Below, one piece after another: positions 4,572 through 58,739 of a stretch of 64,000 nt of DNA. The stretch is from Escherichia coli. Its GTDB lineage: Bacteria > Pseudomonadota > Gammaproteobacteria > Enterobacterales > Enterobacteriaceae. The DNA lies in NCBI RefSeq assembly GCF_030013595.1, contig NZ_CP122768.1. One strand, 5' to 3'. Made by a program: the position numbers and the translations under genes. Every line of letters starts with the position of its first letter. The stretch's first letter is position 1. The notes beneath the pieces were generated by a model that was not told where the DNA came from, made no database searches, and saw nothing but the letters and a program-made list of their open reading frames with translations.

Positions 4572-7500
4572 TTAGTCATTTTGTTGACAGAAAACAGCTA
4601 TCTCCTGGTCCAGCTCTGCAATGTGTTCTTTAACAGAGTTCAGCAGCTGAAGAATTTCAGGCTTACTGTCATCTGAAACAGGTGTTATTTCTAACTGATG
4701 GCTAATATTAATCAACTTTTGCAAATTCAGGATGTTAGCCGCACCGTGGATGCGATGAATACACTGATGGAAAGTTCTGTTGTCGCCAGCTTCTAGTGCA
4801 TGAAACGCAGCGGGTAGATCTTTATGCGTTTCATGCTGGAAAGTCATGAGAATCTCCTGCATCAGTTGTAGATCGTTCGCCGTATTATTTTTCAGGGCCT
4901 CGATATCAAGGTGGCGATACTGAGGTGCAATAGGCGCAACCTGGTGTAACTGACTTAAATGTGTTTTCAGTACATCCAGGGTCAACGGTTTGAACAAACA
5001 TAAGTTCATGCCGCAATTTAACCCTTTTTCACGTTCGTTAGCCTGTGCGTTGGCTGTAAGCCCCCAGATGGGTAAGGCCGAATTTTGCTCACGGAGTTTG
5101 CGAGTCAACTCAAAACCATCCATATTCGGCATATTAACGTCAGTAATAAGCAGATCATAATGTTGCATACTGACTTTGTGTAGCGCTTGCACACCATCAG
5201 TGGCTTCATCAACATCATATCCTAATAGATTTAGCTGGCGTTTGAGTAATAGCCTGTTGGTCGGATGATCATCCGCGATTAATATGCTCAACTTTTCAGG
5301 GAGTGTCATAGGTTGTTCTGCTTTTGCCTCGACAGTCGCCACTTGTTGGGTAATTTCTACCGGGATTGTGATCGTAAATGTCGTTCCTATGCCTGGATGA
5401 CTTTCTAATGACAAATCGCCCTGCATGTTTTTAATTAATTCTTTGCAGATCATTAAGCCTAAACCAGAACCTGTTTGCTGACGACCTGCACTTGTTTGGC
5501 TATAGCGTTTAAACAGTTGTTGTTGTTCTTCCTGCGATAATCCACTTCCAGAATCCATAATCGTCATTTTGATTACAGCGTGGTTGTCATCAATGTTAAC
5601 CAGGGAGGTCGTAATTTTTACTGCCCCCTCGGTGGTAAATTTGAGAGCATTGCTCAGTAAATTAGATAAGACCTGCTTAAACGCCTGAGGGTCGATCTTA
5701 ACCAGGTAATGTTCAGGAAACGTACTGCTGCAACTTAATGCGATGGATTTGCTTGCAGCAATCGCACCGAAAGAGTGACAAGTGTTCTGGACTAAAGTAG
5801 GGATATCGACCCATTGTGGTTGAAGTTGATAGTTACCCGACTCAATTTTGTCGACATCAAGGATTTCACCAATTAAGCCGAGGAGTGATTGTCCGGTGGC
5901 GTAGGCAAGTGAAATCGCCTCCACCCGTTGTTCCTTGCTAAGACCAGAACCCGACAGAAGTTCCAGGAAGCCCATAATGGAGCTTATTGGTGTTCTTATT
6001 TCGTGACTCATTGTTGCCAGAAACTGACTTTTTGCGACAGTTGCATTGATCGCTTTATTTCTCTCTACTTCGAGAGCGTGAATTAAATCACGTGTCTCGG
6101 TAATATCTTGCCAACCACAAATATAAACAGCATGATCGCTGGCTGGCAGATTGCATAATGTATGCCAGTGATTAATGCATCTTTTCTCGATGCCATTATC
6201 AATTTCAAATACCTGTGTGTATATTGTTCGATTTTCTTTCGTTTCTGCTGTGACTTCATGCGCATTAGAAAAAACATCTTTAAAGGGTGAGTCACTGTTT
6301 TCTAATGGTAACATTGCATTTTTGTAGTAATCCGCAGTGAAATAATGTTCAAAAGCACTATTATGACTAATGACATTACCTTGCCAGTTTACAACATAAG
6401 TTGGATTCGGTAAGGAATCCGAGAGTGCTTTTCGGAATGATATTTGGTTTTCTAAATCACCCTGAATGACTTTACGACGACGAACTGAGCGTAACAGGTA
6501 GAATCCCCATAAAAGGCTACTGCCAACTAATAAAACGGATAATGTCGTGACAATATAAAATTGCTCGCTATAGAGGTCCCATGTGTCAATGGTCACATTG
6601 GGCATTTTAATCCATTTTTCCGTCAGGCGCAGAACTTCGCTTGGGGGAATTGCATTCAGAGCTTTATTAATAATATCCTTAAGTTCCGGTTCTCCGCGAG
6701 GAAAAGCGAACGAAAGCGATGCATTCTGAACGCCGGGAATAAGAAAATGATAAAGTTCATTAGGATAGTAATGGTCGATCATGTAACGCGAATTTAGCTG
6801 TGTCGCGACCAGAGCATCAAGTTCACCTTCCTTGACCTTGTGAAATGCAGCGCTGGCGTTATCGACTTTTATCCACTCTACCTCCGGATACATCTCTTTT
6901 AATTGCGAATGCAGCTCATAATAATATGGAATGGCAACTTTCATTCCTTTTTTTAATGTTTGTTCACTGTCAGGCGCTTTTTGCATGACAAAAACGTAAG
7001 GCGTTGTTATGAAGGCTTCAGCAAATAAAACATTATTTTCTCTATCTTCACTATAAATAGCACCGGGTAATATATCCCATCCGCCGGGATTCAGCTGTGT
7101 TCCAGCATGGATATTGTGTGAAACGGTGATCGGAGAAAAATTTAAACCTGTTTGCAAGGTAATAATATTAAGAATATCCCCCATAACGCCCCGAACCGAG
7201 CCATTTTCATCCGTCATAGAATAGGGAGGGGAGTAAGGATTTTCCAACACCTTTAAATCGGGATGCTGCTTAATCCACTGTTTTTCATGTTCAGTGAGTT
7301 CTAATGGTTTGTTCAGAAAGGCCAGGTTTCCTGTATCAAGCCAATTTTGTGATACTTCATAGCGAACTTCGTTTGTCAAAGCATCAACAAATCGATTGAG
7401 TACTTCATTAAGAACGACAGATTCTTTTCTGGTCAAGAAAAAATTATATTGACGCGGTGAGTTATAATATTTCACTACATTTAAGGAGTGAGTGAAATAG

Positions 7501-9199: not shown

Positions 9200-10363
9200 G
9201 TGGAACAGATTAATTCAAATAAAAAACATTCTAACAGAAGAAAATACTTTTCTTTATTGGCGGTAGTTTTATTTATTGCGTTTTCAGGTGCCTATGCCTA
9301 TTGGTCAATGGAATTAGAAGACATGATTAGTACAGATGATGCCTATGTCACGGGGAATGCAGATCCAATTTCTGCACAAGTTTCAGGCAGCGTCACTGTC
9401 GTTAATCATAAAGATACGAACTACGTTCGACAGGGTGACATTTTAGTCTCACTGGATAAGACTGATGCCACTATCGCACTCAATAAAGCTAAAAATAATC
9501 TGGCAAATATTGTTCGGCAAACGAATAAACTGTACTTACAGGATAAACAATACAGTGCCGAAGTCGCTTCAGCACGTATTCAGTATCAACAATCTTTAGA
9601 AGATTATAACCGTCGTGTGCCTTTAGCGAAGCAGGGGGTTATTTCAAAAGAAACGCTGGAGCATACCAAAGATACGTTAATAAGTAGCAAAGCGGCATTG
9701 AATGCCGCTATCCAGGCTTATAAAGCGAATAAAGCTTTAGTAATGAACACACCATTAAACCGTCAGCCACAAGTCGTTGAAGCTGCGGATGCAACCAAAG
9801 AAGCCTGGTTGGCGCTTAAACGTACGGATATTAAGAGTCCGGTTACCGGCTATATTGCCCAGCGAAGTGTTCAGGTCGGCGAAACAGTGAGTCCCGGACA
9901 ATCGTTAATGGCTGTCGTACCGGCACGTCAAATGTGGGTTAATGCTAACTTTAAAGAAACACAACTCACGGATGTACGGATTGGTCAATCGGTCAATATT
10001 ATCAGCGATCTTTATGGTGAAAATGTTGTGTTTCATGGTCGGGTGACAGGGATCAATATGGGAACCGGCAATGCGTTCTCCTTATTACCTGCACAAAATG
10101 CGACAGGGAACTGGATCAAAATCGTTCAGCGTGTACCGGTTGAAGTTTCTCTTGATCCAAAAGAACTCATGGAACATCCCTTACGTATTGGTTTATCGAT
10201 GACAGCAACTATTGATACGAAGAACGAAGACATTGCCGAGATGCCTGAGCTGGCTTCAACCGTGACGTCCATGCCTGCTTATACCAGTAAGGCTTTAGTT
10301 ATCGATACCAGTCCGATAGAAAAAGAAATTAGCAACATTATTTCGCATAATGGACAACTTTAA
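9200..10363 (+). CDS. emrK: Multidrug efflux membrane-fusion protein EmrK (EmrA family)
   Basis: 387-aa ORF with N-terminal membrane anchor and HlyD-like coiled coil; overlaps emrY start. Confidence 0.85.
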   Translation: MEQINSNKKHSNRRKYFSLLAVVLFIAFSGAYAYWSMELEDMISTDDAYVTGNADPISAQVSGSVTVVNHKDTNYVRQGDILVSLDKTDATIALNKAKNNLANIVRQTNKLYLQDKQYSAEVASARIQYQQSLEDYNRRVPLAKQGVISKETLEHTKDTLISSKAALNAAIQAYKANKALVMNTPLNRQPQVVEAADATKEAWLALKRTDIKSPVTGYIAQRSVQVGETVSPGQSLMAVVPARQMWVNANFKETQLTDVRIGQSVNIISDLYGENVVFHGRVTGINMGTGNAFSLLPAQNATGNWIKIVQRVPVEVSLDPKELMEHPLRIGLSMTATIDTKNEDIAEMPELASTVTSMPAYTSKALVIDTSPIEKEISNIISHNGQL

Positions 10364-11901
10364 TGGCAATCACTAAATCAACTCCGGCACCATTAACCGG
10401 TGGGACGTTATGGTGCGTCACTATTGCATTGTCATTAGCGACGTTTATGCAAATGTTGGATTCCACTATTTCTAACGTCGCAATACCGACAATATCTGGC
10501 TTTCTGGGAGCATCAACAGACGAAGGCACCTGGGTTATCACTTCGTTTGGCGTAGCAAATGCCATTGCGATCCCTGTTACCGGCAGGCTGGCACAAAGAA
10601 TAGGCGAATTAAGATTATTTTTACTTTCAGTCACTTTTTTTTCGCTGTCTTCCTTAATGTGTAGCCTATCGACCAATCTTGATGTGCTGATATTTTTTAG
10701 AGTCGTTCAGGGGTTAATGGCGGGGCCGTTAATTCCACTGTCACAGAGTTTATTATTAAGGAATTATCCGCCAGAAAAAAGAACATTTGCTTTGGCATTA
10801 TGGTCAATGACCGTAATTATCGCTCCGATATGTGGGCCGATATTGGGCGGCTATATTTGCGATAACTTTAGCTGGGGTTGGATATTTTTAATCAATGTCC
10901 CTATGGGGATTATCGTCCTGACATTATGCTTAACCTTACTTAAAGGAAGAGAAACTGAGACTTCACCGGTCAAAATGAATCTACCAGGACTGACCCTGTT
11001 AGTGCTCGGTGTTGGTGGCTTGCAAATTATGCTCGATAAAGGGCGCGATCTGGATTGGTTCAACTCGAGTACAATAATAATACTAACAGTAGTGTCAGTT
11101 ATTTCTCTGATCTCTTTAGTCATTTGGGAGTCGACCTCAGAGAATCCGATTCTTGACCTCAGTTTGTTTAAGTCCCGTAATTTCACCATTGGTATTGTGA
11201 GTATCACATGCGCGTATTTATTTTACTCTGGGGCAATAGTCCTTATGCCGCAATTACTCCAGGAAACGATGGGGTATAATGCGATATGGGCCGGACTTGC
11301 CTATGCGCCCATCGGCATCATGCCGCTATTAATATCACCTTTGATAGGACGTTATGGCAACAAAATTGATATGCGGTTATTGGTGACATTTAGTTTTTTA
11401 ATGTATGCGGTTTGCTATTACTGGCGTTCTGTGACATTTATGCCAACGATTGATTTTACAGGCATCATTTTGCCACAGTTTTTCCAGGGATTCGCCGTTG
11501 CCTGTTTCTTTTTACCCTTAACAACGATTTCGTTTTCAGGGTTGCCAGATAATAAATTTGCCAATGCCTCGAGTATGAGTAATTTTTTTCGTACCTTGTC
11601 AGGATCAGTTGGTACGTCGTTGACAATGACGCTGTGGGGACGACGCGAATCGTTACACCATAGTCAGTTGACAGCAACCATCGATCAATTTAACCCCGCG
11701 TTTAATTCATCGTCACAAATTATGGATAAATACTATGGTTCGCTTTCAGGAGTTCTTAATGAAATTAATAGTGAAATAACCCAGCAGTCACTTTCTATTT
11801 CTGCAAATGAGATTTTCCGTATGGCGGCTATTGCTTTTATCTTACTTACGGTTTTGGTTTGGTTTGCGAAACCGCCGTTTACAGCGAAAGGCGTTGGGTG
11901 A
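10363..11901 (+). CDS. emrY: MFS multidrug efflux pump EmrY (EmrB family, 14 TMS)
   Basis: 512-aa polytopic membrane ORF; synteny evgAS-emrKY. Confidence 0.9.
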   Translation: MAITKSTPAPLTGGTLWCVTIALSLATFMQMLDSTISNVAIPTISGFLGASTDEGTWVITSFGVANAIAIPVTGRLAQRIGELRLFLLSVTFFSLSSLMCSLSTNLDVLIFFRVVQGLMAGPLIPLSQSLLLRNYPPEKRTFALALWSMTVIIAPICGPILGGYICDNFSWGWIFLINVPMGIIVLTLCLTLLKGRETETSPVKMNLPGLTLLVLGVGGLQIMLDKGRDLDWFNSSTIIILTVVSVISLISLVIWESTSENPILDLSLFKSRNFTIGIVSITCAYLFYSGAIVLMPQLLQETMGYNAIWAGLAYAPIGIMPLLISPLIGRYGNKIDMRLLVTFSFLMYAVCYYWRSVTFMPTIDFTGIILPQFFQGFAVACFFLPLTTISFSGLPDNKFANASSMSNFFRTLSGSVGTSLTMTLWGRRESLHHSQLTATIDQFNPAFNSSSQIMDKYYGSLSGVLNEINSEITQQSLSISANEIFRMAAIAFILLTVLVWFAKPPFTAKGVG

Positions 11902-12008: not shown

Positions 12009-13337
12009 TTAGCGGCCTTTTGCCAGATATTGCTCCATCTCTTCTTCCGGCACCATTCCACCTCCCGTCGCCCACACCAGATGAGTGGCATTACGCAGTT
12101 GTTCTGCGCTGAAACCGTGCATCTGTTGGTAACTTACTGATGCGCACACGCGCTGAGGCCCGGCCATACCCGCCAGTGCCGAAGGTTCAAGACGAATACC
12201 TTCTTCCTGCGCCAGCCAGCCAAGCATGTCATACATGGTTTGATCGCTAAGGGTATAGAAGCCATCCAGTAGACGCTCCATTGCCCGCCCGACAAAGCCT
12301 GATGCGCGACCAACTGCAAGGCCATCCGCTGCGGTAAGGTTGTCGATACCAATATCCTGAACAGAAATCTGATCGTGTAATCCTGTATGGACGCCTAACA
12401 GCATACAAGGGGAGTGCGTTGGTTCGGCAAAAAAGCAGTGAACATGATCGCCAAATGCCAGTTTAAGCCCGAATGCGACGCCACCAGGACCACCGCCAAC
12501 ACCACACGGCAGATAGACAAACAGAGGGTTATCAGCATCGACAATACGACCTTGCTCGGCAAATTGCGCTTTAAGACGCTGGCCTGCGACGGAATACCCA
12601 AGGAACAACGTGCGGGAATTCTCGTCATCAATAAAGAAACAGTTCGGGTCAGACTGCGCTGCTTTACGTCCTTCCTCGACTGCAACACCATAATCTTGCT
12701 CATATTCCACGACCGTAACGCCATGGCTGCGCAGTTTCGCTTTTTTCCATGCCCGGGCATCAGAAGACATATGTACTGTCACCTTAAAGCCAATGCGGGC
12801 GCTCATAATGCCGATTGATAACCCCAGATTTCCGGTTGAGCCCACAGCAATGCTGTATTGGCTAAAGAACTGTTTAAACTCCGGAGAAAGCAGTTTGCTG
12901 TAGTCATCTTCAGGCGTCAGCAACCCCGCTTCCAGAGCCAGTTTTTCTGCATGTGCCAGGACTTCATAAATCCCGCCGCGTGCTTTTATGGAGCCGGAAA
13001 TGGGCAAATGGCTATCTTTTTTCAGTAGCAGTTGCCCGCTGATCGGTTGTTGATATTCCTTTTCCAGCCGTTTTTGCATAGCCGGAATGGCAACCAGTTC
13101 TGATTCAATAATCCCCCCAGTCGCAGCAGTTTCAGGAAATGCTTTTGCCAGATAGGGTGCAAAACGGGATAAGCGCGCATGGGCGTCCTGAACATCCTGT
13201 TCGGTCAGGCCAACATAAGGTAAACCTTCAGCCAATGAGGTCGTGCCAGGATTAAACCAGGTGGTTTCTTTAAGAGCAACCAGATCCTTTACCAACGGAT
13301 ACTGGGCGATGAGCGAGTTCATTTTAGCGTTTTCCAT
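12009..13337 (-). CDS. dsdA: D-serine ammonia-lyase (D-serine dehydratase, PLP-dependent)
   Basis: 442-aa [34 protein letters not shown]... with PLP-lysine motif SGSIKARGG. Confidence 0.9.
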
Positions 13338-13354: not shown

Positions 13355-13573
13355 TTAGATGATAAATGACAGCAGGAATGTGCCCGCCAGAGCGACGACT
13401 GAAGCGATAAATGTCGCGGTCGTATAGTATTTAAATGTTTCATTGAGCGTAGCGCCGCAATATTGCTTCACCAGCCAGAAAAGCGAGTCCGTAACGATCG
13501 TGCAGCCAATCGCACCTGAACCGATAGCAATCGCAATAATTTCCGGGCTGATGTCGGGATACAGCGGCAGCAC
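13355..13573 (-). pseudogene. dsdX: 3' remnant of D-serine permease gene dsdX (GntP family), truncated by the csc island
   Basis: 72-aa hydrophobic ORF immediately upstream of dsdA with no full-length permease; csc genes begin ~240 bp further on. Confidence 0.55.
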
Positions 13574-13815: not shown

Positions 13816-14811
13816 ATGGCTTCATTAAAGGATGTCGCACGCCTGGCGGGAGTGTCGATGATGACAGTCTCCCGGGTGATGCATAATGCAGAATCTGTGC
13901 GTCCTGCAACGCGTAACCGCGTATTGCAGGCAATCCAGACCCTGAATTATGTTCCTGATCTTTCCGCCCGTAAGATGCGCGCTCAAGGACGTAAGCCGTC
14001 GACTCTCGCCGTGCTGGCGCAGGACACGGCCACCACTCCTTTCTCTGTTGATATTCTGCTTGCCATTGAGCAAACCGCCAGCGAGTTTGGCTGGAATAGT
14101 TTTTTAATCAATATTTTTTCTGAAGATGACGCTGCCCGCGCGGCACGTCAGCTGCTTGCCCACCGTCCGGATGGCATTATCTATACTACAATGGGGCTGC
14201 GACATATCACGCTGCCTGAGTCTCTGTATGGTGAAAATATTGTATTGGCGAACTGTGTGGCGGATGACCCAGCGTTACCCAGTTATATCCCTGATGATTA
14301 CACTGCACAATATGAATCAACACAGCATTTGCTCGCGGCGGGCTATCGTCAACCGTTATGCTTCTGGCTACCGGAAAGTGCGTTGGCAACAGGGTATCGT
14401 CGGCAGGGATTTGAGCAGGCCTGGCGTGATGCTGGACGAGATCTGGCTGAGGTGAAACAATTTCACATGGCAACAGGTGATGATCACTACACCGATCTCG
14501 CAAGTTTACTCAATGCCCACTTCAAATCGGGCAAACCAGATTTTGATGTTCTGATATGTGGTAACGATCGCGCAGCCTTTGTGGCTTATCAGGTTCTTTT
14601 GGCGAAGGGGGTACGTATCCCGAAGGATGTCGCCGTAATGGGCTTTGATAATCTGGTTGGCGTCGGGCATCTGTTTTTACCGCCGCTGACCACAATTCAG
14701 CTTCCACATGACATTATCGGGCGGGAAGCTGCATTGCATATTATTGAAGGTCGTGAAGGGGGAAGAGTGACGCGGATCCCTTGCCCGCTGTTGATCCGTT
14801 GTTCCACCTGA
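13816..14811 (+). CDS. cscR: LacI-family sucrose operon repressor CscR
   Basis: N-terminal HTH MASLKDVARLAGVSMMTVSRVMHN... plus periplasmic-binding-protein-like sugar-binding core; start set at internal ATG 13816. Confidence 0.8.
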   Translation: MASLKDVARLAGVSMMTVSRVMHNAESVRPATRNRVLQAIQTLNYVPDLSARKMRAQGRKPSTLAVLAQDTATTPFSVDILLAIEQTASEFGWNSFLINIFSEDDAARAARQLLAHRPDGIIYTTMGLRHITLPESLYGENIVLANCVADDPALPSYIPDDYTAQYESTQHLLAAGYRQPLCFWLPESALATGYRRQGFEQAWRDAGRDLAEVKQFHMATGDDHYTDLASLLNAHFKSGKPDFDVLICGNDRAAFVAYQVLLAKGVRIPKDVAVMGFDNLVGVGHLFLPPLTTIQLPHDIIGREAALHIIEGREGGRVTRIPCPLLIRCST

Positions 14812-14818
14812 TATTATG

Positions 14819-16252
14819 TTAACCCAGTTGCCAGAGTGCTCCATGTTGCAGCACAGCCACTCCGTGGGAGGCATAGAGCGACAGTTCCCGTTCTTCTGGC
14901 TGCGGATATATTCGGCTACTCATCACCGCCTCCCCGTCGTTAATAAATACTTCCACGGATGATGTATCGATAAATATCCTTAGGGCGAGCATGTCACCCT
15001 GCGGGAGGGGAATACTACGGTAGCCATCTAAATTCTCGTGTGGGTAATACCGCCACAAAACAAGTCGCTCAGATTGGTTATCAATATACAGCCGCATTCC
15101 AGCGCCGAGCTGTAATCCGTAATGTTCGGCATCACTGTTCTTCAGCGCCCACTGCAACTGAATCTCAACTGCTTGCGCGTTTTCCTGCAAAACATATTTA
15201 TTGCTGATTGTGCGGGGAGAGATAGATTGATGCTGCTGGCGTAACGACTCAGCTTCGTGTACCGGGCGTTGTAGGAGTTTGCCATTGCTCTCTGATAGCT
15301 CGCGCGCCAGCGTCATGCAGCCTGCCCAGCCTTCACGTTTTGAGGGCATTGGCGATTCCCACATATCCATCCAGCCGATAACAATACGCCGACCATCCTT
15401 CGCTACAAAGCTTTGTGGTGCATAAAAGTCATGCCCGTTATCAAGTTCAGTAAAATGCCCGGATTGTGCAAAAAGTCGTCCTGGCGACCACATTCCGGGT
15501 ATTACGCCACTTTGAAAGCGATTTCGATAACTGTATCCCTCGGCATTCATTCCCTGCGGGGAAAACATCAGATAATGCTGATCGCCAAGGCTGAAAAAGT
15601 CCGGACATTCCCACATATAGCTTTCACCCGCATCAGCGTGGGCCAGTACGCGATCGAAAGTCCATTCACGCAATGAACTGCCGCGATAAAGCAGGATCTG
15701 CCCCGTGTTGCCTGGGTCTTTCGCCCCGACTACCATCCACCATGTGTCGGCTTCACGCCACACTTTAGGATCGCGGAAGTGCATGATGCCTTCTGGTGGA
15801 GTGAGGATCACACCCTGTTTCTCGAAATGAATACCATCCCGACTGGTAGCCAGACATTGTACTTCGCGAATTGCATCGTCATTACCTGCACCATCGAGCC
15901 AGACGTGTCCGGTGTAGATAAGTGAGAGGACACCATTGTCATCGACAGCACTACCTGAAAAACACCCGTCTTTGTCATTCTCGTCTCCTGGCGCTAGCGC
16001 AATAGGCTCATGCTGCCAGTGGATCATATCGTCGCTGGTGGCATGTCCCCAGTGCATTGGCCCCCAGTGTTCGCTCATCGGGTGATGTTGATAAAACGCG
16101 TGATAACGATCGTTAAACCAGATCAGGCCGTTTGGATCGTTCATCCACCCGGCAGGAGGCGCGAGGTGAAAATGGGGATAGAAAGTGTTACCTCGGCGCT
16201 CGTGAAGTTTTGCTAGTGCGTTTTGCGCCGCATGCAATCGAGATTGCGTCAT
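14819..16252 (-). CDS. cscA: Sucrose-6-phosphate hydrolase / invertase CscA (GH32)
   Basis: GH32 signature WMNDPNGL near N-terminus; ~477 aa. Confidence 0.85.
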   Translation of the reverse strand: MTQSRLHAAQNALAKLHERRGNTFYPHFHLAPPAGWMNDPNGLIWFNDRYHAFYQHHPMSEHWGPMHWGHATSDDMIHWQHEPIALAPGDENDKDGCFSGSAVDDNGVLSLIYTGHVWLDGAGNDDAIREVQCLATSRDGIHFEKQGVILTPPEGIMHFRDPKVWREADTWWMVVGAKDPGNTGQILLYRGSSLREWTFDRVLAHADAGESYMWECPDFFSLGDQHYLMFSPQGMNAEGYSYRNRFQSGVIPGMWSPGRLFAQSGHFTELDNGHDFYAPQSFVAKDGRRIVIGWMDMWESPMPSKREGWAGCMTLARELSESNGKLLQRPVHEAESLRQQHQSISPRTISNKYVLQENAQAVEIQLQWALKNSDAEHYGLQLGAGMRLYIDNQSERLVLWRYYPHENLDGYRSIPLPQGDMLALRIFIDTSSVEVFINDGEAVMSSRIYPQPEERELSLYASHGVAVLQHGALWQLG

Positions 16253-16285
16253 TTTAATCATCCTGGTTAAGCAAATTTGGTGAAT

Positions 16286-16298
16286 TGTTAACGTTAAC
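16286..16298. promoter_or_regulatory. Candidate CscR operator copy 1 (TGTTAACGTTAAC, palindromic core GTTAACGTTAAC)
   Basis: Perfect 12-bp palindrome, present twice in the cscA/cscKB divergent intergenic region. Confidence 0.45.
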
Positions 16299-16349
16299 TT
16301 TTATAAAAATAAAGTCCCTTACTTTCATAAATGCGATGAATATCACAAA

Positions 16350-16362
16350 TGTTAACGTTAAC
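16350..16362. promoter_or_regulatory. Candidate CscR operator copy 2 (TGTTAACGTTAAC)
   Basis: Identical 13-mer 64 bp from copy 1. Confidence 0.45.
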
Positions 16363-16467
16363 TATGACGTTTTGTGATCGAATATGCATGTTTTAGTAAA
16401 TCCATGACGATTTTGCGAAAAAGAGGTTTATCACTATGCGTAAGTCAGATGAATTTAAGGGAAAAAA

Positions 16468-17382
16468 ATGTCAGCCAAAGTATGGGTTTTAGGGGATGCG
16501 GTCGTAGATCTCTTGCCAGAATCAGACGGGCGGCTACTGCCTTGTCCTGGCGGCGCGCCAGCTAACGTTGCGGTGGGAATCGCCAGATTAGGCGGAACAA
16601 GTGGGTTTATAGGTCGGGTCGGTGATGATCCTTTTGGTGCGTTAATGCAAAGAACGCTGCTAACTGAGGGTGTCGATATCACGTATCTGAAGCAAGATGA
16701 ATGGCACCGGACATCCACGGTGCTTGTCGATCTGAATGATCAAGGAGAACGTTCATTTACGTTTATGGTCCGCCCCAGTGCCGATCTTTTTTTAGAGACG
16801 ACAGACTTGCCCTGCTGGCGACATGGCGAATGGTTACATCTCTGTTCAATTGCGTTGTCTGCCGAGCCTTCGCGTACCAGCGCATTTACTGCGATGACGG
16901 CGATCCGGCATGCCGGAGGTTTTGTCAGCTTCGATCCCAATATTCGTGAAGATCTATGGCAAGACGAGCATTTGCTCCGCTTGTGTTTGCGGCAGGCGCT
17001 ACAACTGGCGGATGTCGTCAAGCTCTCGGAAGAAGAATGGCGACTTATCAGTGGAAAAACACAGAACGATCGGGATATATGCGCGCTGGCAAAAGAGTAT
17101 GAGATCGCCATGCTGTTGGTGACTAAAGGTGCAGAAGGGGTGGTGGTCTGTTATCGAGGACAAGTTCACCATTTTGCTGGAATGTCTGTGAATTGTGTCG
17201 ATAGTACTGGGGCGGGAGATGCGTTCGTTGCCGGGTTACTCACAGGTCTGTCCTCTACGGGGTTATCTACAGATGAGAGAGAAATGCGACGAATTATTGA
17301 TCTTGCTCAACGTTGCGGAGCGCTTGCAGTAACGGCGAAAGGGGCGATGACAGCGCTGCCATGTCGACAAGAACTGGAATAG
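16468..17382 (+). CDS. cscK: Fructokinase CscK (PfkB/ribokinase family)
   Basis: 304-aa ORF MSAKVWVLGDAVVDLLPE... with C-terminal GAGDAF motif. Confidence 0.85.
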   Translation: MSAKVWVLGDAVVDLLPESDGRLLPCPGGAPANVAVGIARLGGTSGFIGRVGDDPFGALMQRTLLTEGVDITYLKQDEWHRTSTVLVDLNDQGERSFTFMVRPSADLFLETTDLPCWRHGEWLHLCSIALSAEPSRTSAFTAMTAIRHAGGFVSFDPNIREDLWQDEHLLRLCLRQALQLADVVKLSEEEWRLISGKTQNDRDICALAKEYEIAMLLVTKGAEGVVVCYRGQVHHFAGMSVNCVDSTGAGDAFVAGLLTGLSSTGLSTDEREMRRIIDLAQRCGALAVTAKGAMTALPCRQELE

Positions 17383-17453: not shown

Positions 17454-18701
17454 ATGGCACTGAATATTCCATTCAGAAATGCGTACTATCGTTTGGCATC
17501 CAGTTACTCATTTCTCTTTTTTATTTCCTGGTCGCTGTGGTGGTCGTTATACGCTATTTGGCTGAAAGGACATCTAGGATTAACAGGGACGGAATTAGGT
17601 ACACTTTATTCGGTCAACCAGTTTACCAGCATTCTATTTATGATGTTCTACGGCATCGTTCAGGATAAACTCGGTCTGAAGAAACCGCTCATCTGGTGTA
17701 TGAGTTTCATTCTGGTCTTGACCGGACCGTTTATGATTTACGTTTATGAACCGTTACTGCAAAGCAATTTTTCTGTAGGTCTAATTCTGGGGGCGCTCTT
17801 TTTTGGCCTGGGGTATCTGGCGGGATGCGGTTTGCTTGACAGCTTCACCGAAAAAATGGCGCGAAATTTTCATTTCGAATATGGAACAGCGCGCGCCTGG
17901 GGATCTTTTGGCTATGCTATTGGCGCGTTCTTTGCCGGTATATTTTTTAGTATCAGTCCCCATATCAACTTCTGGTTGGTCTCGCTATTTGGCGCTGTAT
18001 TTATGATGATCAACATGCGTTTTAAAGATAAGGATCACCAGTGCATAGCGGCGGATGCGGGAGGGGTAAAAAAAGAGGATTTTATCGCAGTTTTCAAGGA
18101 TCGAAACTTCTGGGTTTTCGTCATATTTATTGTGGGGACGTGGTCTTTCTATAACATTTTTGATCAACAACTCTTTCCTGTCTTTTATGCAGGTTTATTC
18201 GAATCACACGATGTAGGAACGCGCCTGTATGGTTATCTCAACTCATTCCAGGTGGTACTCGAAGCGCTGTGCATGGCGATTATTCCTTTCTTTGTGAATC
18301 GGGTAGGGCCAAAAAATGCATTACTTATCGGTGTTGTGATTATGGCGTTGCGTATCCTTTCCTGCGCGTTGTTCGTTAACCCCTGGATTATTTCATTAGT
18401 GAAGCTGTTACATGCCATTGAGGTTCCACTTTGTGTCATATCCGTCTTCAAATACAGCGTGGCAAACTTTGATAAGCGCCTGTCGTCGACGATCTTTCTG
18501 ATTGGTTTTCAAATTGCCAGTTCGCTTGGGATTGTGCTGCTTTCAACGCCGACTGGGATACTCTTTGACCACGCAGGCTACCAGACAGTTTTCTTCGCAA
18601 TTTCGGGTATTGTCTGCCTGATGTTGCTATTTGGCATTTTCTTCCTGAGTAAAAAACGCGAGCAAATAGTTATGGAAACGCCTGTACCTTCAGCAATATA
18701 G
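17454..18701 (+). CDS. cscB: Sucrose:H+ symporter CscB (LacY-like MFS)
   Basis: 415-aa 12-TMS ORF; downstream of cscK. Confidence 0.85.
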   Translation: MALNIPFRNAYYRLASSYSFLFFISWSLWWSLYAIWLKGHLGLTGTELGTLYSVNQFTSILFMMFYGIVQDKLGLKKPLIWCMSFILVLTGPFMIYVYEPLLQSNFSVGLILGALFFGLGYLAGCGLLDSFTEKMARNFHFEYGTARAWGSFGYAIGAFFAGIFFSISPHINFWLVSLFGAVFMMINMRFKDKDHQCIAADAGGVKKEDFIAVFKDRNFWVFVIFIVGTWSFYNIFDQQLFPVFYAGLFESHDVGTRLYGYLNSFQVVLEALCMAIIPFFVNRVGPKNALLIGVVIMALRILSCALFVNPWIISLVKLLHAIEVPLCVISVFKYSVANFDKRLSSTIFLIGFQIASSLGIVLLSTPTGILFDHAGYQTVFFAISGIVCLMLLFGIFFLSKKREQIVMETPVPSAI

Positions 18702-33950: not shown

Positions 33951-34025
33951 GGGTCAGTCGTATAAAGGTCATTACGGAAGGCTGTTAACCTTCTTATCGT
34001 GGTTCGAGTCCACGCTGTCCCGCCA
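33951..34025 (+). tRNA. Candidate phage-encoded tRNA (anticodon GTT, Asn-like); atypical D-arm and one acceptor-stem mismatch
   Basis: Manual fold: acceptor GGGTCAG/CTGTCCC, anticodon stem GAAGG/CCTTC with loop CTGTTAA, T-arm CGTGG-TTCGAGT-CCACG, 3' GCCA. Confidence 0.45.
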
Positions 34026-34030
34026 AATAT

Positions 34031-34106
34031 GCTGGTTTAGCTCCAATGGTAGAGCGGTCGCCTTGTAAGCGAATGGGTAGCGGTTCAAGTCCGTTAACCA
34101 GCACCA
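34031..34106 (+). tRNA. Candidate phage-encoded tRNA (anticodon TGT, Thr-like)
   Basis: Manual fold: acceptor GCTGGTT/AACCAGC, D-arm GCTC-CAATGGTA-GAGC, anticodon loop CTTGTAA, T-arm AGCGG-TTCAAGT-CCGTT, 3' ACCA. Confidence 0.5.
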
Positions 34107-42460: not shown

Positions 42461-43755
42461 TGGCATTAAATGAAGGTCAACTGGTCACGTATGCTCTGGA
42501 TGAAATCATCGAAACCGTCCAGAACCTGACGCCAATGGCGTCCAAAGTGACAAAATACACCCCTCCGGCAGAATCCATGCAGCGTTCAAGCAACACCGTG
42601 TGGATGCCTGTTGAGCAGGAAGCGCCAACCCAGACTGGCTGGGATTTAACTGGCAACGCAACCGGGATTCTGGAACTCTCCGTGAAATGCAACATGGGCG
42701 ATCCGGATAACGATTTCTTCGAGCTTCGTGCAGATGACCTGCGTGATGAGCGTTCTTACCGTCGCCGCATCCAGGCATCCGCCAAAAAACTGGCGAATAA
42801 CATTGAGTCAGCGATTGCCAAACAGGCAACTGAAATGGGCTCGCTTGTTGTTCACGATACCCGCGCAATTGGTCCATCTACTGGCCTTTCTGGCTGGGAT
42901 TTTGTGTCTGATGCAGAGCGCCTGATGTTCTCCCGTGAGCTAAACCGCGATATGGGCATCAGTTACTTCCTGAACCCTGACGATTACCGCAAAGCAGGCC
43001 GCAACCTGGTAGATGGTGACATCTTCGGGCGCGTTACTGAAGACGCGTATCACAACGGTACTATTCAGCGTCAGATTGCTGGCTTTGATGAAATTCTTCG
43101 CTCACCGAAACTTCCCGCAGTTACCAAGTCAACCGCTACTGGTGTAACTGTTTCTGGTGCGCAGAAGTTTAAGCCGCAGGCATACACCCTTGATACCGAT
43201 GGTAACAAAGAGAACGTCGATAACCGTGTTGCAACGGTGACCGTATCCTCCACCACCGGATTTAAGCGCGGCGACAAAATCAGCTTCACTGGTGTGAAAT
43301 TCCTGTCTCAGATGGCGAAGAACGTGCTGACTGATGATGCGACTTTCTCAATCACCCGTGTGATCGATGGTACTCACATCGAAATCACGCCGAAGCCGAT
43401 TGCGCTGGATGACGCGTCACTGACAAAAGAAGAGAAGGCTTACGCTAACGTAAACACCTCTCTTGCTGATACCACTCCGGTAAACGTTCTGAACGTGGCA
43501 ACAACCACCGCTAACGTGTTCTGGGCTGATGACTCAATCCGTCTGCTGTCTCAGCCGATCCCGGTAACCCATGAACTGTTTGCTGGCATGAAAACGTCTT
43601 CCTTCAGCATTCCTGGTATTGGTGTTAACGGCATCTTCGCAACGCAGGGGGATATCAACACTCTGTCTGGCAAGTGCCGTATTGCTGTGTGGTATTCAGC
43701 ATGTGCTGTACGACCAGAGGCAATTGGTGTTGGTCTGCCTAACCAGACCGCGTGA
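42460..43755 (+). CDS. Major coat protein (P22 gp5-like, HK97 fold)
   Basis: 431-aa [36 protein letters not shown]...; followed by a strong terminator. Confidence 0.85.
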
Positions 43756-55376: not shown

Positions 55377-57272
55377 ATGACAGACATTACAGCCAATGTG
55401 ATCGTATCGATGCCTTCGCAACTCTTCACTATGGCGCGTTCTTTTAAAGCCGTAGCCAATGGCAAAATTTATATAGGGAAAATTGACACTGACCCGGTAA
55501 ATCCTGAAAACCAGATTCAGGTTTATGTGGAGAATGAAGATGGCTCTCACGTTCCTGTTTCGCAACCAATAATCATTAACGCTGCCGGATATCCGGTATA
55601 TAACGGACAGATTGCCAAGTTCGTAACTGTGCAAGGCCATTCTATGGCTGTTTATGATGCGTATGGGGCGCAGCAGTTCTATTTTCCTAATGTGCTGAAG
55701 TATGACCCTGACCAATTAAGACAGGAGCTATCTAAGCAGACTGATGGTTATTTTTTTAACCTTCCTCAAGGTGGTGTACTACATGATGCAATAAAGTATG
55801 TAACACCAGAAATGTATATCAATACATCTTCAGATATTACATCTGCTATACAAAGTGCATTTGACAATGGAAATGTGATTGATATGTCAGGTAGAGACTG
55901 GACTCTTGAGAGAACAATCCATGTCGGTGATGGCACTGAAATAAAGTTAGGCGCATCAACAATTACATGTCAACTTGGTTCTAAACCTGCTTTTGACTTT
56001 AGAGGAACAGATAAAGGACTCCTGGTCACAGGAGGTAAGTTTATTGGTAATTGCTCTGCAGTATTTTATTTCCAAGGGACTACTGCTTTCCCTTCTCAAT
56101 CAGGTCACTATGCAAGAAAAATAAGAATATACGGCACAGATGCTACTTCAGATACGGATGAGATAATTGATTTCATCTATATGAAGGACGCTGTAAGGCA
56201 AGTTTTTATTGATTCATGTTATGCATATGTAAAAAACGGCATTACTGCAAGCGGGAAATGTGTGGAGGTGAAAGTCCAAAAAAGCATATTCAACTCAGGA
56301 ACTTCCGATCAAAGTTCTTCTAGGATAAGTCTAAATTCACCGTCAGGAGCAAGTTATTACAACGAAGGTTGGCATTTTAGTGATTGTACAATTGATGGAG
56401 TTGGAAAATCATTTAATGTTACCGATATATATTCGTTAACCATCAATGGAGGATTTATCGGTGGTGAGGTTGCGTTTGGACAGCCAATAACAACACATTG
56501 CCGTGAGATCGTACTCGGTGGTGGATTAATCATGAAAGGGCGTGTTACTTTCACGCCAACCGTACAATATGACTACAGGGCCAACATATCTCCTTCTCTT
56601 ATGTTTGGTAATGGTGGAGTTGGAAACGTGGTCCTTAATGCAGGTGCTTCAGGCATCAACGTTAGCACAAAACTTGAAAGTTCTGGTGTTTCAGGAGGAA
56701 CTGGCGTTATTGTTAATGAAGGATGTTCTAATGTTAACGTTGACCTGAGCGCTGATAATACGTATGAAAGACTGGCGTCATTCAATGGTTACGGACCAAG
56801 GTGTTCCGCTTTGATACGTAACTACATGGGAAGCTCTCACCCAATTTATACAGAGCGACCATTAAAGATTATATCATCGCCTGTCACTGACGACGCTGGT
56901 TCTCTGCAGGTTATGAGTTTTGTAAATATACCAGCAGGAAGCTATATTGTTGGTTCTGTTATGTCTGAGGTGAAAGTGACTGCACCAAAAGGTTCTAGAG
57001 GGAAAATTTCTCTTACCATTTCACTGAGTGGATTAACAGGCACATCTTCACAGGCGCTTATTGTAAATATTCCTGCCGGAATGGTTACCCCATCCGGTTT
57101 AGGTTGGGCTTCAAATGTTATTAGACCTCAGTTTGCGGCTGGAATAATGAGTATTGAAATACCATTTTATACAACCACAGACATTGCAGAATCCTCATTA
57201 TCTGTATCTAATTTCTCAGGAAATACAGCAATTGTTGGACTAAACTCTTACATTGGATATTTTTTGATATGA
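55377..57272 (+). CDS. Tailspike protein: conserved P22/Sf6/HK620-type head-binding domain + divergent beta-helix receptor-binding domain
   Basis: N-terminal ~113 aa [60 protein letters not shown]...VLKYDPDQ; remainder Gly/Ser/Thr/Asn-rich and repetitive. Confidence 0.85.
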
Positions 57273-57348: not shown

Positions 57349-58539
57349 TTATTCATTTTCATCAAGCCAGTCCGCCCACCACTGCATCATTTCTCTGCGC
57401 TTGTCTAGATACTGAGCATGGTTGTAAATCCCACGCACAGATCCGCCGTTGGCATGTGCCAGTTGCACTTCAATAGCGTCAGCAGGCCATTCGTGCTCGT
57501 TCATAATTGTGCTGAATTCATGCCTGAATCCGTGACCGCTTTCCAGACCCTCATAGCCGATTTGTTTGATCACAAGCAATACCGCGTTCTCGCAGATTGG
57601 CTTCTTCTTATCGTTGCGCCCTGCAAAAACAAACTCTGATACTGGTTTGGTGATGGAGCTTAACGTAGTGAGAAGTTCAACCACCTGGTCTGACATCGGG
57701 ACCACATGAATTTTGCGTCCCTTCATCACGCTGGCGTCGATGGTGATAATCCTGTTTTCAAAATCGACGTTCTTCCATTGCATGGAGCGAAGCTCTTTCG
57801 TTCTTAGGGCTGTATAACGTAAAACTTTTGTCGCAATAAGCGATACGATACTTCCTGAAAATGTTGCCAGTGCTTTGTTGAATGCCGGGATCTGGTCTGC
57901 AGGAAGAAACGGGAAGTTCTTCTTGCGGTATCCTTTCATGGCGTCTGCAAGGTCAGGTGCCGGGTTATATTTAGCCCTTCCGGTGACAATAGCGTAACGG
58001 AAAACCTCTCCGCATCTTCTGCGGGCTTTGTTGGCTCGCTCCATTGCACCGCGATCTTCAAACCTGCGGATTACTTCAAGAAGTTGCATCGGCTCAATAT
58101 CCTGAATTTCAAGACCGCCGATGATGGGTAAAATGTCGTCATCAAACATTTTGGCAAGTTCAGTCGCATACCCTACAGACCAGACTTGCTTCTTGTGCTC
58201 GTACCATTCCTTGTAAATGGCGCTAAAGGAATTGTTGTTAGACGAAGCCTTTTTCGCTTTTACCGGATCGATGCCAACCGAGATGTCTTTCCTCGCAGTC
58301 CATGCTTTATCCCTTGCCTCTTGCAAAGTCATAAGCGGATATTTTCCGACGGTCAGGATTTTCTCCTTACCGTCAATCTTGTAGCGAAGCTGCCATACCT
58401 TTTTCCCGGATACAGGGACATAAAGGTACAATCCATTACCATCGAGAAGGCGGTATGGTTTTTCTTTCGGCTTTGCTGCTTCAATCTGCTTAACGGTGAG
58501 CATGGGTAAAAATCCGGTGGGTAAAATTATTTTATCCAC
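57349..58539 (-). CDS. intS: Tyrosine integrase, P4-type (IntS-like); start possibly at internal Met 58503
   Basis: ...MLTVKQIEAAKPKEKPYRLLDGNGLYLYV... with C-terminal catalytic region (HGFRH ... Y); directly adjacent to argW. Confidence 0.9.
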   Translation of the reverse strand: MDKIILPTGFLPMLTVKQIEAAKPKEKPYRLLDGNGLYLYVPVSGKKVWQLRYKIDGKEKILTVGKYPLMTLQEARDKAWTARKDISVGIDPVKAKKASSNNNSFSAIYKEWYEHKKQVWSVGYATELAKMFDDDILPIIGGLEIQDIEPMQLLEVIRRFEDRGAMERANKARRRCGEVFRYAIVTGRAKYNPAPDLADAMKGYRKKNFPFLPADQIPAFNKALATFSGSIVSLIATKVLRYTALRTKELRSMQWKNVDFENRIITIDASVMKGRKIHVVPMSDQVVELLTTLSSITKPVSEFVFAGRNDKKKPICENAVLLVIKQIGYEGLESGHGFRHEFSTIMNEHEWPADAIEVQLAHANGGSVRGIYNHAQYLDKRREMMQWWADWLDENE

Positions 58540-58664: not shown

Positions 58665-58679
58665 TGGTGTCCCCTGCAG
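58665..58679. repeat. Prophage attR core: 15-bp direct repeat (tggtgtcccctgcag) within the argW 3' end
   Basis: Exact copy of 19143..19157. Confidence 0.7.
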
Positions 58680-58739
58680 GAATCGAACCTGCAATTAGCC
58701 CTTAGGAGGGGCTCGTTATATCCATTTAACTAAGAGGAC
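58665..58739 (-). tRNA. argW: tRNA-Arg (anticodon CCU), argW; prophage attR at its 3' end
   Basis: Reverse complement reads GTCCTCTTAGTTAAATGGATATAACGAGCCCCTCCTAAGGGCTAATTGCAGGTTCGATTCCTGCAGGGGACACCA. Confidence 0.9.

Follow-up and report, generated by a model that had tools for sequence, protein, structure and literature searches.

The window analysed here, a stretch of 64,000 nucleotides from Escherichia coli (contig NZ_CP122768.1), carries the chromosomal csc sucrose regulon of this species, with gene calls based on the open reading frames, on NCBIfam and Pfam matches and on the RefSeq annotation of a region of E. coli identical to it. From left to right, emrY (10363–11901, plus strand) and dsdA (12009–13337, minus strand) are followed by cscR (13816–14811, plus strand), identified by Pfam, NCBIfam and the annotation as the gene of a LacI-family repressor of 331 aa and convergent with cscA (14819–16252, minus strand), which encodes a sucrose hydrolase of family GH32 and is transcribed leftward from the control region. 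On the other side of that region lie cscK (16468–17382, plus strand), the fructokinase gene that opens the cscKB operon, and cscB (17454–18701, plus strand), the gene of a sucrose:H+ symporter of the oligosaccharide MFS transporter type. The csc intergenic region was found in 2,663 of the 5,426 complete E. coli genomes, that is, in about half of them, and always on the chromosome. Upstream of the intact dsdA only a short dsdX remnant (~13355–13573) and no dsdC is present; this corresponds to the usual either-or configuration of csc and dsd, with dsdA silent in transcription unless a rearrangement has occurred (PMC7486766). A P22-like prophage (~19000–58540) begins directly after cscB, with genes for an O-like replication initiator, terminase, portal, major head protein, DNA-transfer (ejection) proteins, tailspike (55377–57272) and integrase (57349–58539), and with two tRNA genes, Asn-GTT and Thr-TGT, in its interior (33951–34106). 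The prophage abuts tRNA-Arg(CCT) (argW, 58665–58739), a known integration hot spot beside csc.

The 215-bp intergenic region between the divergent cscA and cscK contains two palindromic boxes. An exact pattern search placed the 13-mer TGTTAACGTTAAC at 16286–16298 and 16350–16362 on the plus strand, 64 bp apart from start to start, in agreement with the preliminary description, which had reported two copies at this distance between the cscA and cscK starts. The claim of a perfect 12-bp palindrome also held, as the core 12-mer GTTAACGTTAAC (16287–16298 and 16351–16362) can be read directly as such, with CG at its centre, and the repeat is longer than had been claimed: according to the repeat finder, the identity of the two copies reaches 17 nt, AA[T/A]TGTTAACGTTAACT (16283–16299 and 16347–16363). 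The cscA-proximal box, named O1, is the 14-mer TGTTAACGTTAACT at 16286–16299, with its centre at 16292.5, 40.5 bp upstream of the cscA ATG (16252). The distal, central box, O2, is the same 14-mer at 16350–16363, with its centre at 16356.5, 111.5 bp upstream of the cscK ATG (16468); no strand is assigned to either box. The GTTAAC half-site is palindromic in its own right, and the 12-mer therefore doubles as a tandem repeat of one hexamer. GTTAAC is the recognition site of HpaI and AACGTT that of AclI.

When up to two mismatches were allowed, seven matches to the box were found in the whole window, whereas the mean over 100 dinucleotide-preserving shuffles was 1.3 and none of them had as many as seven, which excludes a chance origin of the boxes. 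The matches away from the control region, at 43444 (two mismatches) and at 56732 (both strands, with one and two mismatches), fall inside the prophage major-head and tailspike coding sequences; they were rejected as additional CscR targets and are most likely due to chance. The pattern search of the window found no box near dsdA or cscR, and a direct action of CscR at dsdA was likewise rejected, since no box is nearby and CscR is not a direct repressor of that gene (PMC7486766). A search by eye of 16390–16467, around the predicted cscK start, for one more box of degenerate sequence gave nothing above about 4 of 12 positions. Two further repeats of the intergenic region were recorded. A 10-nt direct repeat, ATGACG(T/A)TTT, occurs at 16364–16373 and 16404–16413, at a distance of 40 bp and both times between O2 and cscK; its second copy overlaps the predicted cscK −10 hexamer (GATTTT), and the repeat may be due to chance. 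A 14-nt inverted repeat with 86% complementarity, TCCCTTACTTTCAT and ATGAATTTAAGGGA (16315–16328 and 16449–16462), reaches from the cscA promoter spacer, where its first arm is located, to the cscK ribosome-binding site, which its second arm covers, and is possibly also fortuitous.

Sites of LacI-family regulators are even palindromes with a central CG, typically located 30–140 bp upstream of the regulated gene, and multiple sites occur at about 20% of the operons (PMC4052901). The two boxes have this form: both are even, CG-centred palindromes 30–140 bp upstream, and the cognate helix-turn-helix regulator is encoded in the locus. The preliminary description had put the boxes beside a LacI-family gene, and such a gene is indeed part of the locus, but it is not adjacent, as cscA intervenes and cscR lies about 1.5 kb away. 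The assignment of CscR itself is straightforward. Pfam recognises the LacI helix-turn-helix domain (PF00356) at residues 3–48 and a sugar-binding domain (PF00532, Peripla_BP_1) at residues 61–329, the NCBIfam matches are to LacI-family models only, and the closest solved structure, 6NDI, is that of a close CscR orthologue (E = 5e-114). The protein aligns to positions 6–328 of a 358-position LacI-subfamily profile and then ends, and thus it apparently does not possess a LacI-like C-terminal tetramerisation helix.

The literature on the csc genes points in the same direction. According to PMC11251922, Jahreis et al. (2002) described a 12-bp inverted repeat present in two copies between cscA and cscK as putative operators, and one of these repeats is the site of an up-regulating mutation. 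These are the published operator data with which a comparison had been recommended at the outset, and they match the two boxes. Five species have the repeats and a CRP site in common (PMC11251922, 2024), operator sites of cscA and of cscKB have been named and a mutation of the cscKB operator has been re-isolated (PMC3938415), and in EHEC the loss of cscR raises the cscA, cscK and cscB transcripts 28- to 156-fold (PMC7486766).

A further line of evidence is the distribution of the boxes among other species. Nineteen CscR homologues were aligned, and the alignment was used to fetch 80 loci from a species-representative genome collection, in which CscR is 54–96% identical to the protein of the window. 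These loci come from Escherichia, Citrobacter, Pluralibacter, Tatumella, Pectobacterium, Samsonia, Cedecea, Klebsiella, Enterobacter, Rosenbergiella, Yersinia, Rahnella, Ewingella, Serratia, Pantoea, Providencia, Proteus, Moellerella, Gilliamella, an Orbaceae bacterium and Zobellella. A tblastn map of the loci showed that the convergent cscR/cscA pair is conserved and that the layouts of transporter and kinase genes vary, including the divergent cscKB known from E. coli, an operon in which a cscB-like gene precedes cscA, and a divergent cscK only. With at most one mismatch, the 12-mer occurs 153 times in the 978,613 bp of these loci against a shuffle mean of 2.75, and 151 of the 153 copies lie no more than 260 bp upstream of a cscA, cscB or cscK homologue. 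At least one such promoter box is present in 72 of the 80 loci and at least two in 64; the remaining eight are loci in which adjacent sucrose genes are missing or which end before the promoter. The recognition helix of CscR, V13-S14-(M/L)15-M16-T17-V18-S19-R20, is essentially invariant, even though the overall identity of the protein falls to 54%. Its Met-Met presumably aligns with Tyr17-Gln18 of LacI, and the position of the hinge residue Leu54 of PurR would be taken by Met or Ile. A recognition helix and an operator that both appear frozen across such divergence are the expected signature of a cognate repressor/operator pair.

It could be argued that the boxes belong to some other regulator, such as Cra/FruR, TreR or ScrR, that they are palindromes of the restriction-site type, or that they arose as a chance duplication. 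Other LacI-family sugar regulators also bind CG-centred palindromes (PMC4052901), and no report of direct DNA binding by E. coli CscR (EMSA, footprint or biosensor) was found in the literature searched, within whose reach Jahreis 2002 and Sabri 2013 did not fall. A 2026 preprint on a CscR concerns the protein of Pseudomonas protegens rather than that of E. coli, and a full-text literature search for the 12-mer retrieved only unrelated papers with cloning or primer sequences. However, the 12-mer copies follow the target genes of cscR orthologues from Escherichia to Gilliamella and Zobellella far in excess of the shuffles, the 12-mer is missing from loci whose CscR homologue has no neighbouring sucrose genes, and the published operator mutation falls within one of the repeats (PMC11251922). 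Chance, restriction-site and other-regulator origins were rejected on the co-occurrence statistics, and we regard this whole group of explanations as highly improbable. The form of the boxes, their co-occurrence with an invariant helix in the 80 loci and the literature all agree with the earlier reading of CscR operators in the divergent cscA/cscKB region; the two boxes are very probably the operators O1 and O2 of CscR, the repressor of the csc sucrose regulon.

In two Yersinia genomes, Y. similis (L028, 42–53) and Y. pestis (L031, 230–241), CscR homologues without adjacent sucrose genes are accompanied by one box with one mismatch, located some 5.8–5.9 kb upstream at the edge of the locus; a different operon in the vicinity may be the target of these CscR paralogues or orphans. 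A different arrangement is seen in Gilliamella and the Orbaceae (L064, L071–L077, L080 and L081; ~5825–5860), where two overlapping boxes 14 bp apart, TGTTAA[C/T]ATTAACATGTTAACGTTAAA, stand before a cscB-like gene divergent from cscR. This pair matches a described class of LacI-family sites that overlap at a distance of about 13 bp (PMC4052901).

The boxes are embedded in a control region that also contains two CRP-like sites. CRP1 (TGTGATATTCATCGCA, 16332–16347, minus strand, centre 16339.5) agrees with the consensus TGTGA-N6-TCACA at 9 of 10 positions, and the whole window has only four sites that depart from it at one position or none; the CRP1 centre is 17 bp from that of O2 and 47 bp from that of O1. 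The weaker CRP2 (TGTGATCGAATATGCA, 16373–16388, plus strand, centre 16380.5) agrees at 7 of 10 positions and is centred 24 bp from the centre of O2 toward cscK. O2 stands between the two sites, whose centres are 41 bp apart, and this order is conserved across species. Two cAMP-CRP sites have also been described for the csc promoter (PMC3938415). A scan of 16150–16550 for consensus sigma-70 promoters and terminators found none, which is unsurprising because the promoters are CRP-dependent, and the −10 hexamers and transcription starts were therefore placed by the geometry of the CRP sites and by conservation between species. If CRP1 acts from about −41.5, the cscA start would lie at ~16298, which fits TATTTT (16311 to 16306) as the −10 hexamer; with TATAAA (16305 to 16300), the second candidate in the predicted cscA −10 region (16300–16311, minus strand), the predicted start would shift to ~16293. 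TATTTT is partly conserved between species, whereas TATAAA is found only in E. coli. The predicted cscA start (~16293–16298) is thus probably inside O1 or at its edge, and as O1 covers it under either hexamer, the placement agrees with the report that the downstream operator overlaps the transcription start (PMC11251922). For CRP2, the same geometry predicts a cscK start at ~16422 (16421–16423) with GATTTT as the −10 hexamer, and there is no box at this place. O2 would then be centred at about −65 relative to the predicted cscK start, on the DNA that would receive the polymerase alpha C-terminal domain. At class II CRP promoters, this domain normally docks upstream of the CRP site.

An ungapped alignment of 27 dereplicated regions of the 64-bp type showed that the boxes and the two CRP-like sites form conserved islands amid diverged sequence. 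The cross-species consensus of O2 extends to an 18-bp palindrome, AATGTTAACGTTAACATT; CRP1 is strongly conserved in the near-consensus form TGTGATTAACATCACA, 3 nt downstream of O2, and the GATCACA half of CRP2 is highly conserved about 10 nt upstream of O2. Further islands are a short CTT(TAT) motif and AAAA, followed by O1 and then AAT, and O1 keeps its position relative to the CRP site and to the start of the first gene across genera. In Serratia and Yersinia (L019–L027, L044 and L056–L069; the window counterpart is 16370–16391), the neighbouring upstream gene does not diverge from the module but shares its strand, and CRP2 is nevertheless conserved. Since CRP2 is kept there without a divergent gene, the CRP2-O2-CRP1-promoter-O1 module seems to have existed before cscA and cscKB came to diverge as they do in E. 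coli. The boxes of a pair are 64 bp apart in 40 loci, 63 bp in five and 62 bp in three; a spacing of 62–64 bp is found in most of the CscR-encoding species sampled from the Enterobacterales, and also in Zobellella. The exceptions are Proteus, with 68–69 bp in eight loci, and Gilliamella, with 57 bp in eight, both about half a helical turn out of phase with 64 bp; Providencia and Moellerella have a single box. One way to read this pattern is as an ancient and rigid module in which O2 does more than obstruct polymerase and antagonises, or co-assembles with, the flanking CRP dimers, or else pairs with O1. We put this forward tentatively, as a proposal that is on the whole rather doubtful.

Two rival models of operator action have to be weighed. 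In the first, O1 and O2 would be an obligate cooperating pair, with the CscR molecules on the two operators in contact, the intervening 52 bp with CRP1 and the cscA promoter looped out, and the spacing kept at 64 bp so that both boxes face the same side of the helix. The spacing of 62–64 bp is indeed retained in 48 loci across genera despite the divergence of the inter-box sequence, 64 bp is close to six helical turns (6 × 10.5 bp), and helically phased distances have been read as a sign of cooperativity for this family, in which multiple sites are not rare (PMC4052901). The lineages that are about half a turn off and the single box of Providencia fit poorly with an obligate pair, and the fixed geometry of O2, CRP site, −10 hexamer and start, as imposed by CRP and polymerase, explains the spacing equally well. 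A loop of 64 bp would moreover be unusually tight, and CscR, with its 331 aa, appears not to have the C-terminal tetramerisation helix that LacI uses, although other modes of association are conceivable. Looping between O1 and O2 is therefore considered unlikely.

In the second model, CscR would act as an anti-activator in the manner of CytR, held at O2 by the CRP dimers on CRP2 and CRP1 and masking the activating regions of CRP without competing for DNA. At deoP2, cdd and similar promoters, CytR, a LacI-family repressor, likewise occupies a site between tandem CRP sites; O2 is located exactly between two conserved CRP-like sites, also in those Serratia and Yersinia loci that have no divergent gene; and among the NCBIfam models that of CytR gives CscR its highest score, although at 137 bits against a cut-off of 436 this score reflects general family similarity only. 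The operators of CytR are, however, weak and flexible and their occupancy depends on CRP, whereas O2 is a strong, canonical and perfect palindrome that probably overlaps CRP1; its 18-bp footprint would share about 3 bp with the 22-bp footprint of CRP1, which suggests competition rather than co-binding. The CRP sites of CytR promoters are, in addition, about 50 bp apart as compared with 41 bp in csc. All this makes a CytR-like action of CscR quite improbable.

We return to the reading of O1 and O2 as CscR operators that act on promoter and activator sites. From the sequence features described above, and from CscR repression, the operator mutation and CRP dependence as known from the literature, we infer the placement of the starts and the following division of labour between the operators. 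Without inducer, one CscR dimer would sit on each palindrome, each (T)GTTAAC half-site being read by one helix-turn-helix with its recognition helix VSMMTVSR, and the hinge helices would cover the central CG. O1 would block RNA polymerase directly, as it follows closely on the predicted cscA −10 hexamer and extends over the start. O2 abuts or overlaps CRP1, the putative site of cscA activation, and adjoins the upstream side of CRP2, the putative site of cscKB activation, so that CscR bound there would hinder the binding of CRP, or the recruitment of polymerase that depends on it, at both of the divergent promoters. O2 would also be the only box available for the control of cscKB, and because no box is present at the predicted cscKB start, the strong CscR dependence of this operon needs an indirect action from O2. 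At high levels of sucrose, the candidate effector, CscR would be released, and expression would then require cAMP-CRP.

Within E. coli, 2,289 of 2,662 genomes have an identity of 99% or more over the 131-bp core region. In an alignment of five sampled E. coli variants and two divergent Escherichia lineages, no substitution falls within a 12-bp core, and this includes cases in which at least 10 changes have accumulated between the boxes. One strain, CT265 (NZ_CP095795.1; L082, 2491–2643, corresponding to 16286–16362 of the window), carries an exact 64-bp deletion between the repeats, which looks like a repeat-mediated event and leaves one box and CRP2, with the loss of CRP1 and of the predicted cscA promoter. 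The deletion allele is rare, since at most four of the 2,662 csc-positive genomes have partial coverage of the region.

Several known systems are comparable. The csc operators of E. coli EC3132 and W, as far as Jahreis et al. (2002, J Bacteriol 184:5307) is relayed in PMC11251922 and PMC3938415, involve the same locus, region and repeats, two cAMP-CRP sites and repression by the LacI-family CscR; there is no difference in kind, and the window represents another csc-positive strain. A parallel outside csc is the scrY promoter of pUR400 and Klebsiella (Cowan, 1991; Jahreis and Lengeler, 1993), for which the account given in PMC11251922 describes likewise two palindromes, O1 and O2, of a LacI-family sucrose repressor, ScrR, and also resembles csc in having one operator upstream of the −35 region, one over the transcription start and a CRP site further upstream. 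Unlike CscR, ScrR belongs to another orthologous group, closer to FruR, has a different 14-bp motif and regulates a PTS pathway in response to fructose or fructose-1-phosphate; clearly different motifs are the rule among sucrose regulators of different orthologous groups (PMC4052901). More generally, the operators of LacI, PurR and CcpA share with those of csc the even, CG-centred palindrome, recognition by a helix-turn-helix and a hinge helix, and a repressor gene near its targets, with the difference that LacI has the tetramerisation helix apparently absent from CscR.

The boxes were thus already described in 2002, and the observation is correct and ordinary, of a textbook type. The additions made here are modest: the extension of the footprint over some 70 more species, the statistics on spacing and on the conserved module, the invariance of the recognition helix and the natural 64-bp deletion. 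Industrial E. coli strains that are fed on sucrose, both E. coli W and engineered K-12, depend on the csc regulon, and the deletion of cscR is a standard engineering step. Knowledge of the exact operators allows a finer tuning through operator point mutations, sucrose-responsive synthetic promoters and biosensors, and the strong conservation of GTTAACGTTAAC across species points to a clean, portable repressor/operator pair. A point of some interest is the control of the cscKB promoter by a single central operator between two CRP sites. Should the tentative reading of a rigid CRP2-O2-CRP1-promoter-O1 module prove true, a single repressor site could end CRP activation on either side and would thereby account for the repression of cscKB without an operator at its own promoter.
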